Assembly (NCBI GenBank): GCA_963665235.2
Contig: CAXXLX010000001.1
Coordinates: 2,528,001-2,592,000 of the forward strand
Origin: Candidatus Poribacteria bacterium
GTDB taxonomy: Bacteria; Poribacteria; WGA-4E; WGA-3G
Direction of reading: 5' to 3'
Length of the DNA: 64,000 nucleotides
The notes beneath the pieces were generated by a model. The model was not told the DNA's origin, searched no databases, and worked only from the letters and a program-made list of their open reading frames with translations. A program made the position numbers and the translations under genes. Shown here one piece after another: positions 1 to 7,009 of this stretch. Position 1 is the first letter of the stretch, and each line of letters begins with the position of its first letter.

Positions 1-800
1 ATGTCTGTGCGGTCAGGTGCGATGTCGTTTCGGCGTGCTTCAAACCGTTCCTGTGTCGTTTCATCGGGCCCACGATTTACCAGAGTGTGATTGAACGTGT
101 CAATCTCTTCCTGTGATTTATCACAAGTTTCCTGCACCCATTCACCAAGCTCAATGTCATTTGGGTTGTTAACCGCGGCTTCCTGAAAATCATCGGCGGC
201 GGTTCCGAGGAATGTTAGGATGCGGACATCCTGTCCTGAGGTATCGCCATATTTATAGTCGCCGATTTTCCCTGTGCGGTCCGCGCGAGCTTTATCTGCC
301 ATGCGTGCAACACCACAGATGCCAGCAACATCCCTTGCCCGCGCACTGCGCGGCGGCCGGACGGTCAAATTGAGCTGCCAAAAACATCCCCAATCGTCTA
401 ATTCTATAGACTGAATCACTGTCTTAATATCGGTGCGCTCGGGTGCGAACCGTTCGAGCCGTTCTTTCAACAGCTGTTGATGTTTTTTGTCGGTCGGCAA
501 TTTCTCTAATTCCGTTCGATTAAATGTTGCGATTTCTTCAGCGGTCTTTTTGCCGTTTTCAAGCATCCAGTTGCTGAGTGTGGCATCGTCGTATTCGCCA
601 GCGGCCTCCGCGAATGCGTCCGATGAAATATTCAAAAACGCTAAAATACGCAGATCTAATCCGGAATCGGCTCCGTAAACAAAATCGCCGAGGGTTTCGG
701 CATTATGTGCGCGAGCTTTGTCTGTCATGCGTGCTGCCCCGACAATCCCTGCAACACCTAAGTTTGAGGGACGACGTGGGGGTTGACGTGTCAAATCCAT
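1..800 (-). CDS. Tandem DUF5069-like domain protein (3' end outside window)
   Basis: Manual translation from ATG 800 with RBS AAGGAG: MDLTRQPPRRPSNLGVAGIVGAARMTDKARAH...GDFVYGADSGLD, then a second copy LTVRPPRSARARDVAGICGVARMADKARA...GDYKYGDTSGQD. Open to the window edge; absent from the ORF track. Confidence 0.8.
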   Translation of the reverse strand, partial: MDLTRQPPRRPSNLGVAGIVGAARMTDKARAHNAETLGDFVYGADSGLDLRILAFLNISSDAFAEAAGEYDDATLSNWMLENGKKTAEEIATFNRTELEKLPTDKKHQQLLKERLERFAPERTDIKTVIQSIELDDWGCFWQLNLTVRPPRSARARDVAGICGVARMADKARADRTGKIGDYKYGDTSGQDVRILTFLGTAADDFQEAAVNNPNDIELGEWVQETCDKSQEEIDTFNHTLVNRGPDETTQERFEARRNDIAPDRTD

Positions 801-826
801 AATGTTTCTCCTTTCAATTTATTCCA

Positions 827-868
827 TAGGACTTATGCATTCCCCCCGGGGGAAATGCATAAGTCCTA
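827..868. repeat. Palindromic element TAGGACTTATGCA...TGCATAAGTCCTA
   Basis: Inverted repeat. The same terminal motif recurs at about 36919, 45949 and 60572. Confidence 0.75.
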
Positions 869-959
869 ATATCATGTTTAATACTTGTGTCAACAGATGC
901 CATACGCGCATTCGGCGTTGATTTGGTGTTTCCAAAGCGCGTGTCCAAAGAGAAAGCGG

Positions 960-2033
960 TTAGAAGGCATATAGTGCTGTTAACGAGACCAACGTCCCTA
1001 ACTCAAACGCATCGCTTTCCTCATACTTACCGTCTAAGAAAGCGGTGCTGTCATCATAAAGTGTCTCTTGTTGGATTGGCAGCATCAACGTAATAGATAG
1101 CGGCACGTTGTAAGGTGTCGCAAGGGACACGCCTATCGATGCCAGACTAAACCGGAGACCTGTATTGATGTCCTTCTCTCCTGCCCAATAGGCGTAGGAT
1201 TGATACAGTCCAAGATAACTCGTCTGTAGCGAAAGCCAATTGTTAACGCGATAATTCAACCCGGCGGTATAGGTAACATCCCATGAACCGCGATAGGTTT
1301 TACTGTTTTCATAGAATGGGAACTTCCCGCCAACACTTATGTTGCCAACTAACCCGCCGTAGATTGGAAGGCTGTAGTGCAAGTTAGCAGTAGGGTTAAA
1401 TGTCCCCGTACCGAATTGGATATGGAGATGTTCTAGGCCCATATCCCCGAGTTTCCATGGGTCTTCTTCGGTTTTACCGAACGGAATTGTTGTTCCCAAT
1501 TTTGCGGTTAGCTGGTCATGTTTTCGGAAAATTCCTTCTCTGTTATATGTCAACAAGAGGTTCATATCAGAGATACCGCGATAGGTTTCGTTTCGGTGGT
1601 GAATGTCCTGATTTCGTATTATCGCGTTTCTCTGTTCCGAGGTATCGATTGAATCGACCGGTTCAATGCTGGCATCTTGGCTTTTTATTTCATACGGCAG
1701 TGCTGCTTCTAATCGCCACTGTTCATTCAGTTGATATTTTAAGCCGATGTCGAACCGAAGAACGTTCAATTTGACCTTATGTCGGTGGACCGGTACCTCT
1801 ATTACGTTTCCGGTGGGAGAGATTCCCTTACTTTCGAGGTGGCCCCCTTCCGCGTTGAACCCGCGTGTATTAATAGACGCTTCAAATTTCTTTTGCTCTG
1901 AAGTTAAACTAACTTCACTTCCCCCACCTTGTGGGATTGTGGGGTTGCTTCACGCGCCTCAGCTCTCCTGTGCGAAGCCGAGGGGAATGAAGATGAATTG
2001 AACGGCAAAAATTGCCGCAAGTAGGATTTTCAT
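960..2033 (-). CDS. Putative outer-membrane beta-barrel protein with N-terminal UxxU motif (candidate selenoprotein, 357 aa)
   Basis: RBS GGAGGT, ATG 2033, signal peptide MKILLAAIFAVQFIFIPLGFA, then QES-TGA-GA-TGA-SNP. The frame continues without another stop into the 960-1769 ORF. Alternating beta-strand pattern and C-terminal YAF. Confidence 0.8.
1921..1944 (-). promoter_or_regulatory. Candidate bacterial SECIS hairpin
   Basis: CCCCAC-AAT-CCCAC-AAG-GTGGGGG directly 3' of the second TGA. The loop lies about 20 and 29 nt from the two TGAs. Confidence 0.5.
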
Positions 2034-2199
2034 GATATTTTACCTCCATTATTGTAGTTCCCCGTGTTGTTTTTCTTCGGAAACGATATTCTCTATTTCT
2101 TCTGCGATTTCTTGGACTTAGGAGAACGGTGTCCAGTATTCGGGCAAACAACCCGCTCCTAGAATTTTGCACAAAACACAGTCATGGTTTCCATTATTA

Positions 2200-2356
2200 T
2201 AATCCGAGTTGCTACCTATAAGTTTTTAGACATGGACACTCCGTCTTTAGGCAAAAAATGATTATAATTCGCCAATATCTTGTGCCGTAAACTTCCAGTT
2301 TGCGACCTTATGGCACAAACTAGGAAGTTTGTGCTACTATGTGGCAACTTAGGTTA
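2200..2356. mobile_element. MITE family E1
   Basis: Ends TAATCCGAGTTGCTAC / GTGGCAACTTAGGTTA, flanked by TTA on both sides. Homologues at 37425-37564 and 37568-37728. Confidence 0.8.
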
Positions 2357-2359
2357 TTA

Positions 2360-2539
2360 TACCATTTCTAATTGAAAATGTCTCTTTATTGTAGCATAAA
2401 CTTCCAGTTTGTGCTCTTTATTGTAGCATAAACTTCCAGTTTGTGCTCTTTATTGTAGCATAAACTTCCAGTTTGTGTCTTCCGTTCTCCGTTTGATTTC
2501 TAACAACCGGTAATGATAGAATAATTAATAAAAATGGTA
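2360..2539 (+). mobile_element. MITE family E2 with three 32-bp REP-like units
   Basis: TIR TACCATTT/AAATGGTA, TTA target duplication, unit GTAGCATAAACTTCCAGTTTGTGCTCTTTATT. Inverted copy at 44862-45169. Confidence 0.85.
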
Positions 2540-2696
2540 TTATATCAAAAACAGTAGTATTTTGTCAAAAAAACACATAACTTTAGATTTTATGAAGTTC
2601 TTATAGGTTCAGGTTTTTATAGAAATTTCGTAACTGCAACTTACCCTTCTTCCGAAACACCTTTGCGAAAATAAAATAGGTTGGAACACCACAACC

Positions 2697-3983
2697 TCAA
2701 AGCAGCGGTGCCGACGTTTTGCCCAGCACCCGTGGCAACCAGAGACTCAACTCCGGAATATACGTCACCAATAGAAGCGCGATGAGAAGTAAACCTATAA
2801 AAAGCAGGACCGAACGGTAGAGCAGCACGACAGGTCGTTCGAACTTCAAGCTTGATATAAACAGATTCATGCCCACCGGTGGTGTGAGATAACCGATTTC
2901 AAGGTTTGTTAAGACGATGATGCCGAGGTGCACTTTGTCAATACCAAATTGTTCAGCGATTGGAATAAGCAGCGGGACGACGATGATTATCGCTGAAAAG
3001 ATGTCCATCAAACACCCAACGATGAGCAGAAAGATATTCAAGCCGATAAGGGTAATGATACGGTTCTCTGTTATTGATTGTATCCAATCCAGCACAACTG
3101 TTTGAACCTCGAGGGTAACAAGATAGTTTGTTAATCCTAACGCTATGCCGAGGATGATAAGAATTGCACCGACGAGCACCATGCTCTCTTTGACAAGGCG
3201 CGGTAACGTTTTCACAGAAATTGATTTGTGGATGCAGATTTCTACGAGGCAAACATATATGACAGTCAATGCTGCGATTTCATCAAGCGTAACAACGCCT
3301 GAAAGGAGACCGCCTAAAATGAGAACGGGTAAAAGGACTTCCCACTTCACATCCCATAACGTTCGTAGGAAAACCGATAAGCGAAATGGGGTTGTTTCTG
3401 TCCGTTTAAAGAGGCTCCATCCGCTACAGTAAAAACCGAGAATAGCGAGAATAATTATGCCGGGGATGATGCCTGCGAAGAGCATGCTATCAATCCGTAC
3501 TTTTGCGACAATAGCATAAAGAATAAGCGGAATACTCGGCGGAAATAGGAGGCCGATGCTGCCGGAGGCGGTCACCAACCCTAATGAAAATTGTTCACTG
3601 TAGCTTTGACGTAGAATTGGATAGAGCAAACCCCCGAGGGCGATAATCGTTATGCCGGAAGCCCCCGTAAAGGTGGTAAAGAACGCACAGGTGCCGAGGA
3701 CGACCACTGCAATCCCGCCCGGTAGCCATCCAACACTGGCGCGTGCAAATGCGACTAAACGTTGCGGTGCTTTTCCTTCCGCGATAATATATCCTGCCAA
3801 AGTGAAAAGTGGAATAATCAGAATAGTCTGATTTTTTGTGAGTCTATTGACATCAATTAGGATTGTTGAAATCGGGTCACCTGCTGTGGCGTATCCGATA
3901 ATTGACGCAGCTCCAAGTAGTACAAAGAGCGCGCCGCCTAAGAGTGCGAAACCTACTAAGCCTATACCGATTATTAATCCCAT
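2697..3983 (-). CDS. dctM: TRAP transporter large permease
   Basis: Highly hydrophobic 428 aa with IPLFTLAG, ASGSIGLLFPPS and EIGYLTPPVGMNLF motifs. Confidence 0.92.
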   Translation of the reverse strand: MGLIIGIGLVGFALLGGALFVLLGAASIIGYATAGDPISTILIDVNRLTKNQTILIIPLFTLAGYIIAEGKAPQRLVAFARASVGWLPGGIAVVVLGTCAFFTTFTGASGITIIALGGLLYPILRQSYSEQFSLGLVTASGSIGLLFPPSIPLILYAIVAKVRIDSMLFAGIIPGIIILAILGFYCSGWSLFKRTETTPFRLSVFLRTLWDVKWEVLLPVLILGGLLSGVVTLDEIAALTVIYVCLVEICIHKSISVKTLPRLVKESMVLVGAILIILGIALGLTNYLVTLEVQTVVLDWIQSITENRIITLIGLNIFLLIVGCLMDIFSAIIIVVPLLIPIAEQFGIDKVHLGIIVLTNLEIGYLTPPVGMNLFISSLKFERPVVLLYRSVLLFIGLLLIALLLVTYIPELSLWLPRVLGKTSAPLL

Positions 3984-4510
3984 TAATTCGATTCTCCTTC
4001 GGCCTCAGCAGGGGGGAGTTCAGGTGCTGCGAAACGCATACAAATCTGAAGTATCAAGTGAACAGCGATAAGGACAAACCCTATCGGGATGATGCTTTTC
4101 GCCCACCAGAGCGGGACTGTGCCGATAAGTGTAGCTGGACTTTGCTGTTCGTCTTTCAGGAAGACAAAACCGTAATAGGCTAAAATGCTCACGACACTTA
4201 GGCTGAGAACGTCAATGATATAGGCACTGAAACGCTTAACGTTTTCAGGCAAAATACGGTTGAGAACGTCAATGCTAATATGCCGCTTTTCTGCGGAGGC
4301 GAGTGCTGCGCCAAGGAAACATAACCAGAGCGTTAAGTGCTGAAGCATCACAGTTTTCCACAATAGGCTCGTCTTGAATCCGTAACGCATTATAATTTCC
4401 AGCAGCGCAAGTCCAATCATCAGGACGACGACTACGCATAACATGCCTGTTTCGATTTTACCAAGGAGGGTGTTTGCGCGCTGTAAGTAGTTCTGAACAG
4501 AAAATTTCAT
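3983..4510 (-). CDS. dctQ: TRAP transporter small permease
   Basis: Four TM helices, WLCFLGAALASAEKRHISID motif. Start moved to ATG 4510 (RBS GGAGG). Confidence 0.88.
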   Translation of the reverse strand: MKFSVQNYLQRANTLLGKIETGMLCVVVVLMIGLALLEIIMRYGFKTSLLWKTVMLQHLTLWLCFLGAALASAEKRHISIDVLNRILPENVKRFSAYIIDVLSLSVVSILAYYGFVFLKDEQQSPATLIGTVPLWWAKSIIPIGFVLIAVHLILQICMRFAAPELPPAEAEGESN

Positions 4511-4523
4511 GAGAGACCCTCCC

Positions 4524-5783
4524 CTATTTTTCCGCTGCGAGTACCTGAATACCTGCGGCCGGTAGGACCGCGACTTTGGCTTTTGCTGGAAGGGTTTCAG
4601 CGAAGAGTTGTATAAGTTGCTCAAGGTTGCGGAAAAGAATTCCGTTCGAGAGTTTTTTGCTAAAATCGTCTACAAGGAAATTCTCCGACCAGACGTGCAG
4701 TTGATTTCGGTTTCCGAGTTTCGGTTTGGGAAGTTCAGATGGCGTTCTCTCTGCTTGCTGTTCAAGAAATCGGGTATAATCAATTTCCTCAAACAGCCCG
4801 TGGTAGCAGATACCGTCGCTTGCGGGATTCAGGACCATCTTATATGCGTTTTCAAAATAGCGAGTCGCCCACAGTGCTTTTCCTGTTTGAAGGGGGTCGC
4901 TATCAAGGGGGTAACAGTTGAGCACAACGAGGTCCGTCTCTTTTCGGGATTGCATCGGTATTTCTGTGCCGTAGGTTTCTAGGGCGAACTGCGCGCCAGC
5001 GCGATGTGCCTGCACAAAATCTCCTACAAACACTCCACAAATTTCCCTCCGAGAATTAAGGACAACGTTAGCGATAACGTCAAGCCCGATGTGTGCTGCG
5101 GTCTCTTCGGCAAAATCACGATGATCGGCGGTGTCACCGCTTCTTTCAATGACTGCATGCCCACGGCTTGGTGAAAAGGTGTGGAAATAGAAGATTGTTT
5201 CAAAACCGGCGATACCGGGGACTATCAGCTTTGCGCCGCCGCCAAATCCGACAGCACCGTGCGGATAGATGCCTCCCAAGCAGATTTTGAAATCCGCATC
5301 TGCTACGGTTTCGTTTATATAGATAGGCATACCGTTGTCAAGGCTGCCGTGTCCACGTAGGTCACCGCTCATAAAGTCATGGCTTGTTACCTCATATTCT
5401 CTTGCGATGTCGGTGCCCACTTTTTTTGCGATTTCTTCATCCGTGAGCGGCCGGTGTGAGCCGCCACCTACAACAAATCGGGTCTCTGATTTGGGAACAC
5501 CTGCTGCGGTGAGCTCTTGTAATAGAAAGGGAATCACTTCATGTGCTGGGGTCGGCCGACTCAGGTCATCTACGATGATAGCAGCCCGTTTTTTGCCTTT
5601 TGCAAGCTCGGCAATACGGGGGGTGCCTATCGGTTGGGCGAACGCGTGTTCAATTTCCGCATCAGAGAGGCGTGGTGCATCCTTCGGGCCTAAGATCTCG
5701 ACCTCCCATCCCGTCGGAAAATTTAAAGTAAGTTCTTTATCGCCATACCAAGCGTGGGCGTACATTGTTGCTGTGTTCTTCAT
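4524..5783 (-). CDS. Lactate racemase (LarA) family protein
   Basis: IIVDDLSRPTP, GGGSHRP and PHGAVGFGGGAKLIVPGIA motifs. Confidence 0.85.
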   Translation of the reverse strand: MKNTATMYAHAWYGDKELTLNFPTGWEVEILGPKDAPRLSDAEIEHAFAQPIGTPRIAELAKGKKRAAIIVDDLSRPTPAHEVIPFLLQELTAAGVPKSETRFVVGGGSHRPLTDEEIAKKVGTDIAREYEVTSHDFMSGDLRGHGSLDNGMPIYINETVADADFKICLGGIYPHGAVGFGGGAKLIVPGIAGFETIFYFHTFSPSRGHAVIERSGDTADHRDFAEETAAHIGLDVIANVVLNSRREICGVFVGDFVQAHRAGAQFALETYGTEIPMQSRKETDLVVLNCYPLDSDPLQTGKALWATRYFENAYKMVLNPASDGICYHGLFEEIDYTRFLEQQAERTPSELPKPKLGNRNQLHVWSENFLVDDFSKKLSNGILFRNLEQLIQLFAETLPAKAKVAVLPAAGIQVLAAEK

Positions 5784-5953
5784 CTATCCGATTCCTTATA
5801 GAAAATTCGATGCGCGAGGATTTCGATTTTTTTACGTTCCTCTACATTATATCAGAAAAACGACCCTTCGTCAAGAAAAATGTAAATTTCCTTGACAACC
5901 GGTTACTGTTTCTGATAGGATATAGATTAACATGTTGATTAATTTTTTAAAGG

Positions 5954-7009
5954 ATGTCCATGAAATTACTGGTCACTGGCGGTGCTGGATTTATCGGCAC
6001 CAATTTTATCCGACATTGGCTTCGTGAGTATCCACAGGATACTGTGGTTAACCTTGATAGGTTGACGTACGCGGGGAATCTCTCTAATCTGACAGACGTG
6101 GTGGCGGCTTATCCGGAGCGATATACGTTTGTCCATGGTGATATTCTTGATGGTGCGTTTGTGTCGACGTTTTTCGAAACACATCGGCCGGATGTAATTG
6201 TCAATTTTGCTGCGGAATCTCACAATAGTCGTGCAATTTTACACCCGCGGCAATTCTTTGAAACGAACGTGATGGGGACTCAGGTTTTATTAGACGCTGC
6301 GCGGCAGTATGATATATCGCGGTTTCATCACATCTCGACGTGTGAGGTTTACGGGGAGCTGCCCTTAGATTCGCCTGATGCGTTTACTGAAACTTCTCCC
6401 TACCGCCCACAGACACCGTACAACGCCTCCAAAGCAGCAGCTGATCATCTCGTTAATGCCTATTTTCATAGTTTCGGGCTTCCGATAACGATTTCGAACA
6501 GTTCCAATAACTACGGGCCTTATCAACATCCGGAGAAATTGATTCCGCTTTTCACAACGAATGCTATACAGGATTTGCCTTTGACGCTCTACCGCAGTAG
6601 TCACAACCGTAGGGAATGGCTGCACGTTCACGATCACTGTTGTGCCATTGCTTCGGTTATCCACAACGGCAGAATCGGGGAGACGTATAACATCGGCAGT
6701 GGTGTTGAGAAAAGCATTGAGGAGATTAGCGATTTTATTTTGGAATTTCTCAATAAACCGCAACGTCTGAAAACCTATGTTCCCGATAGACCGGGGCACG
6801 ATTGTCGGTATCTCTTAGATTCCGAGAAGATTGAACGTGAGCTCGGTTGGCACCCGGTGATGCCGTTTGAGTCCGGGATGCAGCAGACGATTCAGTGGTA
6901 CGTTGACAATCAGGAGTGGTGGCAAAAAATTCAGCAGAACGCTGCTACAGCGAGCGTTCAGGAAGATAAATGGGAAACGTTCTCTCCTGCAAAGCAGGAA
7001 GATGTCTGA
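5954..7009 (+). CDS. rfbB: dTDP-glucose 4,6-dehydratase
   Basis: VTGGAGFIG, LTYAGN, FAAESH, YNASK, NNYGPYQHPEKLIP and DRPGHD motifs. Confidence 0.92.
   Translation: MSMKLLVTGGAGFIGTNFIRHWLREYPQDTVVNLDRLTYAGNLSNLTDVVAAYPERYTFVHGDILDGAFVSTFFETHRPDVIVNFAAESHNSRAILHPRQFFETNVMGTQVLLDAARQYDISRFHHISTCEVYGELPLDSPDAFTETSPYRPQTPYNASKAAADHLVNAYFHSFGLPITISNSSNNYGPYQHPEKLIPLFTTNAIQDLPLTLYRSSHNRREWLHVHDHCCAIASVIHNGRIGETYNIGSGVEKSIEEISDFILEFLNKPQRLKTYVPDRPGHDCRYLLDSEKIERELGWHPVMPFESGMQQTIQWYVDNQEWWQKIQQNAATASVQEDKWETFSPAKQEDV

Follow-up and report, generated by a model that had tools for sequence, protein, structure and literature searches.

Bacterial selenoproteins have been described both as outer-membrane β-barrels and with paired selenocysteines (Sec, U). 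The GSU2204 protein of the MtrB/PioB family (NF041027) is the sole outer-membrane barrel selenoprotein in the consulted sections of two reviews (PMC13188914, PMC9312934), and the Sec-x-x-Sec (UxxU) motif appears in those sections only in a Prx-like protein, an HMA-type metal-binding protein and an FmdB-family protein. Here we describe a UxxU selenoprotein gene whose product is predicted to form an outer-membrane β-barrel. It occupies positions 960-2033 (minus strand) of a 64,000-nucleotide (nt) stretch of DNA from a Candidatus Poribacteria bacterium (assembly GCA_963665235.2, contig CAXXLX010000001.1, positions 2,528,001 to 2,592,000), which we call the window. The gene is genuine, conserved and mis-annotated.

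The closest described barrels differ from the window protein in several respects. GSU2204 is alike in being an outer-membrane β-barrel selenoprotein, but according to the review table it has one Sec and a CXXCH motif; it is unrelated to the window protein, which has no NCBIfam match. The best structural match is the functional-amyloid secretion channel FapF (5o65, 5o67), also a 12-strand barrel (Foldseek E 2.9e-12, template modelling (TM) score 0.63-0.68 on the target), but the identity is 13-14% and no fap-type context was seen around the window gene or its homologous loci. The COG4313 / PF13557 (Phenol_MetA_deg) channels, represented by 4rl8 of Pseudomonas putida, form a 12-strand barrel of similar size (E 7.2e-11, TM score 0.66 on the target) and were followed by FadL/TodX. 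The nearest protein-language-model clusters carry PF13557 and some relatives give weak, sub-threshold hidden Markov model matches to it, whereas the window protein has no PF13557 match. The C/U-x-x-C/U-S-N-P tail, the histidine set and the HMA/thioredoxin fusions of the window family are features seen in our own alignments.

Mercury resistance offers a further comparison. MerT is an inner-membrane protein and MerP is periplasmic. The barrel family has no sequence relation to MerT, MerP or MerTP, but the gene of one homologue with Cys in place of Sec (Cys form) shares an operon-like row with genes for MerTP, MerA and an HMA-thioredoxin protein, and the paired Cys are likely metal ligands. The HMA-type UxxU protein NF041115, named 'putative mercuric reductase' in the reviews, likewise has Sec-x-x-Sec for a metal-binding CxxC and a mercury/copper link; its motif sits in the folded HMA domain of a small soluble protein, whereas that of the window protein is on the disordered N-terminal tail of a barrel. 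The retrieved sections of a mer review (PMC8261052) name no outer-membrane mer component, and those of the Haft and Gwadz preprint contain neither such a component nor a barrel selenoprotein of this type. A preliminary description of the window, made by a model from the letters alone, had cited ExtI of Geobacter as an outer-membrane selenoprotein. This precedent falls away: the consulted part of PMC5877670 describes ExtI as porin-like, and it is the cytochrome ExtKL that is the selenoprotein of the cluster. A literature search on Poribacteria and selenocysteine, at the level of its listing, gave nothing on the window protein. Given that no NCBIfam model matches the protein, that no Pfam model attains its cut-off and that the consulted sections of the two selenoprotein reviews do not contain it, we regard it as representing a new family of selenoproteins, of a kind already known; a prior listing under a generic name is possible.

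Reading frame and conservation of the two TGA codons

Translation of the minus strand with TGA read as U gave one frame of 357 codons, from an ATG at 2033-2031 to a TAA stop (Table 1). The table-11 list of open reading frames starts the gene at TTG 1769, which is codon 89. The preliminary description had extended the frame 88 codons upstream of this TTG to an ATG with a strong ribosome-binding site and a signal peptide, and both are seen: a GGAGG precedes the ATG by 9 nt, and the 21 N-terminal residues, MKILLAAIFAVQFIFIPLGFA, are signal-peptide-like by inspection. The only interruptions of the frame are the TGAs at codons 25 and 28, which give QES-U-G-A-U-SNP as had been proposed. The exclusion of a global recoding of TGA also stands, as the window has 34 stop-to-stop frames that span 250 codons or more, and TGA ends 9 of them (TAA 17, TAG 8). 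In some orthologues, the barrel gene's own frame closes with TGA.

We searched for homologues in six frames with the read-through protein. Matches were found in 54 of 61 related genomes and, across the phylum, in 140 of 176, with all members of families f1 (111/111), f2 (11/11) and f4 (7/7) positive and 10 of 29 in f3; the 17 genomes of seven further Poribacteria families gave no match. The related loci are from metagenome-assembled genomes of Candidatus Poribacteria, many with isolate names that refer to sponge studies. Each of the 150 phylum matches listed had one to three in-frame TGAs (there were 101 further matches). Among 106 fetched loci, which come from two overlapping collections and comprise 83 distinct 120-nt segments, the signal sequence is followed by U-G-A-U-S-N in 105 and by U-G-G-U-S-N in one. 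Nearly all of them keep a hydrophobic N-terminus whose last residue is small, A in most cases, and precedes a Q. The U-G-G-U locus is a paralogue in the genome of the window itself (C1:1825189-1826256, minus strand; locus L052/L157; 60% identity). Adding 37 further loci gave 118 distinct homologous sequences, all from Candidatus Poribacteria: UGAU 94, UGGU 1, CPAU 21, CGAU 1 and CSAU 1. The first motif position is therefore TGA or a Cys codon (C-x-A-U) and the second is always TGA (counts in Table 1). Recurrence of the TGAs in every orthologue examined is far beyond chance.

In distant relatives, the same positions are mostly occupied by Cys. A HMMER search of 1.84 billion representatives returned 387 relatives, 16 of which reach the N-terminus; 14 of these have Cys at both positions, in the form C-x-x-C-(S/R/G/Q)-N-P. 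The remaining two are short database fragments with W, S-W-G-A-W-SNP in P0183 and C-S-L-W-SNP in P0164. The flanking peptide of P0183 is that of locus L137, which has TGA at both positions, indicating that its W is a gene-caller mistranslation of TGA as Trp. Some pipelines thus translated such contigs with TGA=Trp. The expectation that homologues would show TGA or Cys at positions 25 and 28 was borne out, with Trp confined to the two fragments.

The nucleotide pattern around the motif was that of a coding sequence. In an alignment of the 83 distinct segments (A1), the entropy at codon positions 1/2/3 was 0.32/0.30/1.05 before the first TGA (UGA1) and 0.21/0.18/1.17 after the second (UGA2), in the same frame; the third position was thus 3-6 times as variable as the first two on both sides. 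This indicates that translation runs through both TGAs. As far as sequences can tell, with UGA conserved, aligned with Cys and flanked by coding sequence on both sides, this is a bacterial selenoprotein gene.

Sequencing runs were searched as assembled contigs of low depth (9 runs from 3 studies, with RNA from one study). Contigs of a non-RNA run (X1) matched 1467-2094 without differences. In the three metatranscriptome libraries, contigs covered most of the gene at low depth, and two of them span both TGAs unchanged (X8 record 20, 1825-2024; X6 record 15, 1938-1998). None of the differences listed falls on a TGA base (30 further differences were not listed). The TGA-bearing 5' part is present in RNA libraries, an observation that is silent on transcript ends, strand and level and in which uncovered stretches carry no information.

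One genome, present in both collections as L044 and L094, has a third in-frame TGA (MMR-U-FDAQGGH, against MMR-W-FDAQGGH elsewhere), which may reflect a nonsense mutation, a fault in the assembly or an unusual recoding event. The Cys form P0128 found no match among PLSDB plasmids by tblastn, and a single protein query found no relative in viral contigs.

Candidate decoding hairpins and selenocysteine machinery

The genome of the window (5.3 Mb, 4 contigs, 92.6% complete) has the four components of Sec machinery that the preliminary description had singled out, all above curated cut-offs. The tRNA-Sec gene selC (anticodon TCA) scored 78.1 bits against a gathering score of 47 and adjoins selB (357 bits, cut-off 242); selA reached 601 bits (cut-off 268) and selD 359 bits (cut-off 125), the latter with one in-frame TGA of its own. 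Two tandem small HMA proteins at C1 ~2948.8-2949.7 kb (locus L154, 840-1217 and 1048-1707, plus strand) have TGA for the first Cys of the metal motif (GMT-U-G-G-C and GMT-U-G-S-C), and each gene has a hairpin starting at the UGA and resembling a selenocysteine insertion sequence (SECIS), with loop AGUGC. The UxxU protein NF041115 has no member above cut-off in this genome. A third HMA match with one TGA was observed in a 568-amino-acid (aa) frame at C1:2847 kb.

Two conserved hairpins follow the TGAs of the barrel gene (Table 1; UGA1 occupies A1 columns 13-15 and UGA2 columns 22-24). The first, H1, begins 12-14 nt after UGA1, a distance canonical for a SECIS, and 3-5 nt after UGA2; 91.8% of its cells are paired in A1, and it covaries, as evidenced by column pairs 30-52 (UA 41, CG 22, UG 7) and 34-48 (GC 36, AU 26, GU 10). 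The second, H2, lies 39 nt from UGA2, with 99.5% of cells paired and pair 69-75 split between CG (54) and UA (29) without breaks. The covariation score of the whole structure was 0.205, compared with 0.135 ± 0.006 for shuffles and at most 0.076 when the partners were slid, and RNAalifold recovered both hairpins independently. The SECIS that the preliminary description had expected downstream of the UGAs thus has candidates in conserved, covarying hairpins. The single GC-rich hairpin within ~30 nt in that description corresponds to H1, which in the window sequence lies 14 nt after UGA1; the number has to be revised from one to two. An Rfam scan of window positions 1-6000 at E up to 1 gave no match, so that no known SECIS or riboswitch model fits.

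H2 is unbroken in 114 of the 118 distinct sequences, with several pair types at most stem positions. Its loop is GUU in 95, GGU in 7, GUA in 3, GUC in 2, AGUUC in 2, AGUUG in 1 and CGUGN in 4. It is also kept in family f4, whose encoded peptide at this place differs, and it has one U-C mismatch in the own-genome U-G-G-U paralogue. The natural variants of the motif bear on the spacing. In the C-P-A-U paralogues (alignment A4, 22 sequences), H2 is kept and the first hairpin, in which two pairs covary, is further downstream; its apical loop starts 22 nt from the U of the only UGA, compared with 23 nt from UGA1 in UGAU sequences, indicating that the spacing to the sole UGA is maintained. In the CGAU and CSAU variants (L130, L131), the RNA is still of the UGAU type and the second UGA is the only one present; if these variants are functional, UGA2 can be decoded alone in that RNA context. 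The two Cys-form loci fold differently at the hairpin position, which is a weak control because the peptide there differs as well. For comparison, the own-genome selD SECIS has its stem start at 11 nt from the UGA, to which the 12-14 nt of H1 come close, and a GGG loop at +20; the loops of the two HMA SECIS elements are at +15.

A decoding scheme can be proposed from these features. Both UGAs would be decoded as Sec by SelA, SelB, tRNA-Sec and SelD, directed by the two-hairpin element just downstream, either hairpin of which may be the SelB site. The unwinding boundary of the ribosomal helicase lies ~11 nt from the first base of the P site. On this geometry, the H1 core, which starts 5 nt after UGA2, would be at about the closest position that a helix can take without being unwound. 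The H1/H2 element may therefore stay folded while both UGAs are read, even with UGA2 in the A site, and one composite element could serve both.

The predicted barrel, its partners and a possible role in metal handling

An AlphaFold2 model built on a 59-sequence alignment had a mean predicted local distance difference test (pLDDT) of 86.4 and a predicted TM score of 0.84. Its 12 strands fall within residues 50-356, with short helices placed at 132-145 and at 192-197. Confidence was above 90 for most of residues 51-357 and below 50 for residues 1-45, which include the disordered selenol tail. The structure prediction thus agrees with the outer-membrane barrel of the preliminary description. The signal-peptide-like N-terminus, the 12-strand model and the aromatic C-terminal residue (...LYAF, by inspection) together characterise the product as a predicted outer-membrane β-barrel protein. 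The histidine clusters noted earlier are present, and three positions are invariant in the 59 aligned relatives (H65, H85, H146), while H145, H202 and H204 are kept in at least 90%. By strand order, and with the N-terminus assumed to be periplasmic, the conserved His would map to strands 1-2, in their outer half, and to extracellular loops 2 and 3.

Sequence profiles assigned the protein to no described family. No Pfam model reached its cut-off for the window protein (P0001) and none of the matches was PF13557; the best sub-threshold models were OMP_b-brl (23.8 vs 28.7) and DUF6850 (22.5 vs 27). PF13557 was sub-threshold in two relatives (P0224 19.3 and P0260 18.3, vs 22), and in the protein atlas the Cys form is placed beside clusters with PF13557 in 51-75% of members. 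NCBIfam gave no family at E up to 1, and the PDB sequence search with the family profile returned two chance-level matches only (E at least 0.2).

Fusions and neighbours of the homologues bear on the function. Of the top 150 homologues, 10 measure 398 aa or more; each of these matches HMA or thioredoxin in its C-terminal part at E <0.01, and 8 of them pass the Pfam cut-off. The extension is an HMA domain (P0134), a thioredoxin, or a thioredoxin with a cupredoxin-like stretch. Four of the five thioredoxin-fused sequences inspected (not P0204) have a His/Asp-rich linker before the WCxPC motif. The context of the Cys forms is known from a very small sample, since a metagenome scan with P0128 gave two loci only. 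In both, an HMA+thioredoxin gene is directly upstream of the barrel gene, ending 13 nt before it or overlapping it. At L148, MerTP (298 bits vs 180) and MerA (493 vs 454) are just upstream and an AcrB-family pump is downstream, while L149 has a CsoR-type repressor and a disulfide reductase that is not MerA. Co-location with merA and merT/merP was therefore found at L148, and neither for the window gene nor in its genome. The own-genome U-G-G-U paralogue has an aldo-keto reductase upstream and a gene for a 143-aa four-helix membrane protein whose start overlaps the paralogue's stop.

Because the family shows HMA/thioredoxin fusions with His-rich linkers and HMA-thioredoxin neighbours of its Cys forms, one of them in a mer operon, we propose thiophilic-metal handling at the outer membrane as the function, without specifying the metal or the direction of transport; we rate this slightly above an even chance. 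The metal- or redox-handling role suggested in the preliminary description accordingly has indirect support from the same fusions and neighbours. The protein would be a secreted 12-strand outer-membrane barrel whose flexible tail, after signal cleavage, would start with QES-Sec-Gly-Ala-Sec-Ser-Asn-Pro. At the outer membrane, the diselenol tail and the His cluster in or over the barrel may together bind a thiophilic metal ion such as Hg(II) or Cu(I). Periplasmic partners of the HMA/thioredoxin type could then receive the ion or deliver it, as part of uptake or detoxification. Sec in place of Cys would raise the affinity or reactivity. A double-Sec outer-membrane barrel with conserved two-hairpin decoding and a metal-handling tail is, taken as a whole, the explanation we prefer, with a probability of roughly 80%.

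Several observations weigh against this explanation. On the conservation side, the genomes are close kin, so the counts overstate the independent support; the Sec/Cys exchanges and the Cys forms across phyla are independent of this kinship. On the RNA side, the 11-nt loop of H1 is without the small G/GU-rich loop of the selD and HMA SECIS elements, H2 has a small G/U loop but at a distance of 49-58 nt from the two UGAs, its CG/UA split may go back to a small number of events, and the RNA-library contigs are of low depth and could include DNA. As to function, the mer link consists of two Bacteroidota-like metagenome contigs with a true MerA in one only, and in the Poribacteria genome MerA stayed below cut-off (381.8 vs 454.45) and a MerT search gave no match. 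Nor do the neighbours in Poribacteria include metal genes: beside the gene in the window are DUF5069 and the TRAP (tripartite ATP-independent periplasmic) transporter DctQM, and among 75 loci an aldo-keto reductase is upstream in 28, with an Opp/Dpp-type binding protein downstream in 39 and an ATP-binding cassette (ABC) permease in 33. Thioredoxin fusions fit a redox role equally well.

A redox role is the alternative we take most seriously, although we consider it rather unlikely. The UxxU/CxxC tail would then be the redox centre of an outer-membrane-anchored selenol/thiol-disulfide oxidoreductase, reduced by thioredoxin-like partners and acting on periplasmic or incoming disulfides, peroxides or selenite/tellurite. 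The CxxC spacing is the classic redox motif of the thioredoxin fold, and most known bacterial selenoproteins are redox enzymes according to the consulted parts of PMC13188914 and PMC9312934. Nine of the 10 long homologues carry a fused thioredoxin-like domain with WCxPC, the neighbour gene in both Cys-form loci has a thioredoxin domain, and an aldo-keto reductase adjoins many Poribacteria loci (28/75) as well as the own-genome paralogue. However, the motif is on a disordered tail outside any thioredoxin fold, the partners and fusions extend to HMA, a cupredoxin-like stretch and His-rich linkers, one Cys-form locus is a true mer operon while the other has a CsoR-type metal repressor, and the conserved histidines point to metal coordination.

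A passive channel for small hydrophobic or other solutes, of the COG4313/FadL type or FapF-like, with the Sec pair as a diselenide latch or plug anchor, appears clearly less probable still. The best structural matches (FapF, 4rl8, FadL/TodX), the PF13557 content of the nearest atlas clusters, the sub-threshold PF13557 matches in relatives and the ABC importer after the gene in 39 of 75 loci would all suit it. It leaves unexplained the invariant C/U-x-x-C/U-S-N-P motif and the use of Sec, as well as the repeated HMA, thioredoxin and His-rich fusions and the mer neighbours, and the window protein reaches no Pfam cut-off. We give hardly any weight to the idea that the TGAs are real stops or errors, whether through a pseudogene, a start at TTG 1769 or an alternative code with TGA=Trp. 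All 120 listed database entries begin after the TGAs and two fragments have W at the Sec positions, but both TGAs are kept in more than 100 genomes with coding-type substitution on both sides, and with a start at codon 89 the product would lack the signal peptide along with the first strand and a half of those modelled with confidence. Moreover, homologues have Cys rather than Trp, one W entry shares its flanking peptide with a TGA locus, TGA serves as a stop in the window and in orthologous barrel frames, and the X1 contigs match the region with zero differences. Global TGA recoding was rejected in view of the TGA stops, and sequencing error and the TTG 1769 start were rejected as well.

Beyond the preferred explanation, a wider proposal can be formulated, which we regard as tentative and on balance doubtful. 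The family would be the missing outer-membrane step of Hg/Cu trafficking, with Cys in Bacteroidota mer-type operons and an upgrade to diselenol UxxU in sponge-symbiotic Poribacteria. Its two Sec codons, 9 nt apart, would be served by one composite two-hairpin SECIS at the ribosome unwinding boundary, an arrangement that is not known from bacterial Sec decoding.

Annotation, flanking features and significance

The motif is invisible in public databases because every entry examined is N-terminally truncated and called 'hypothetical'. The 120 best database proteins measure 261-327 aa with 75-91% query cover and are unnamed or 'hypothetical protein', except for one that JGI labels 'long-subunit fatty acid transport protein'. 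The cluster members that carry a name come from Poribacteria, Planctomycetota and Polyangiaceae and are called 'hypothetical protein', with one fused form called 'thioredoxin 1', and the Cys forms, from Bacteroidota metagenome-assembled genomes, are likewise labelled 'hypothetical protein'.

Table 1. Features of the selenoprotein gene and its surroundings in the window
Feature	Position	Strand	Basis
Full coding sequence of the selenoprotein precursor, 357 codons + TAA	960..2033	-	Translation with TGA=U; full-length relatives with 2 in-frame TGA; codon-position entropy
Shine-Dalgarno-like GGAGG, 9 nt before ATG	2043..2047	-	Direct sequence reading
Signal peptide, residues 1-21, predicted cleavage after GFA	1971..2033	-	Inspection of translation
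UGA codon 25, first Sec of UxxU	1959..1961	-	TGA 95/118, Cys codon TGC/TGT 23/118; Cys in 15/16 distant full-length relatives
UGA codon 28, second Sec of UxxU	1950..1952	-	TGA 118/118 Poribacteria sequences; Cys in 14/16 distant relatives, W in 2
Hairpin H1, CCCCAC / 11-nt loop / GUGGGG, candidate SECIS	1922..1944	-	A1 columns 30-35 with 47-52
Hairpin H2, GAAGUUA / GUU / UAACUUC, G/U-containing apical loop	1900..1916	-	A1 columns 64-70 with 74-80
Predicted 12-strand β-barrel domain, residues 50-357, His 65, 85, 145, 146, 202, 204	963..1886	-	AlphaFold2, Foldseek, conserved columns
Sigma-70-like consensus match TTGACA-18-TATAAT, possible own promoter	2539..2568	-	Pattern scan alone, not functional evidence
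~40-nt near-perfect palindrome, possible terminator or repeat	828..867	-	Direct reading; one mismatch by eye

Upstream of the gene is a 660-nt gap that contains the sigma-70-like match. When the frame was read upstream of the start, many loci (L033-L050, L052) and both paralogues were seen to share a similar stretch (...RKEIRRKIRLF...), which suggests conservation or repetition of the 5' leader DNA from locus to locus, perhaps as a promoter or leader element. The gap also holds an intergenic element of ~28 nt (2133-2160) with an internal CGGG...CCCG inverted repeat, found at at least 45 places in the genome on both strands (187 first-look candidates), which looks like a dispersed repeat of the repetitive extragenic palindromic (REP) kind. 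Summed contig depth was very high, with many loose ends, at 2022-2123 and 2175-2400. An identical 23-nt hairpin with a T-rich, terminator-like tail occurs twice between the genes (2393-2415 and 2425-2447, plus strand), 32 nt apart. The TRAP genes DctM and DctQ and a LarA-like gene with a lactate racemase N-terminal domain are further upstream (2697-5783, minus strand); no link to the barrel gene was established. LarA enzymes use a nickel cofactor. At the other end, the 828-867 palindrome sits between the selenoprotein stop codon and the DUF5069 gene and was not picked up by the terminator scan, which requires a T run.

The gene adds a selenoprotein family that current annotation misses entirely. 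Selenium on the tail of an outer-membrane barrel, and not in a cytoplasmic redox enzyme, would be an unusual site. The tandem UGAs, the two hairpins and the CPAU, CGAU and CSAU variants make up a natural test of SelB/SECIS spacing with Sec codons three codons apart. As far as the Bacteroidota Cys forms are concerned, the family is a candidate outer-membrane partner for mer and copper systems, and Sec in the HMA motifs of the same symbiont lineage hints at selenium-based metal handling in sponge microbiomes.

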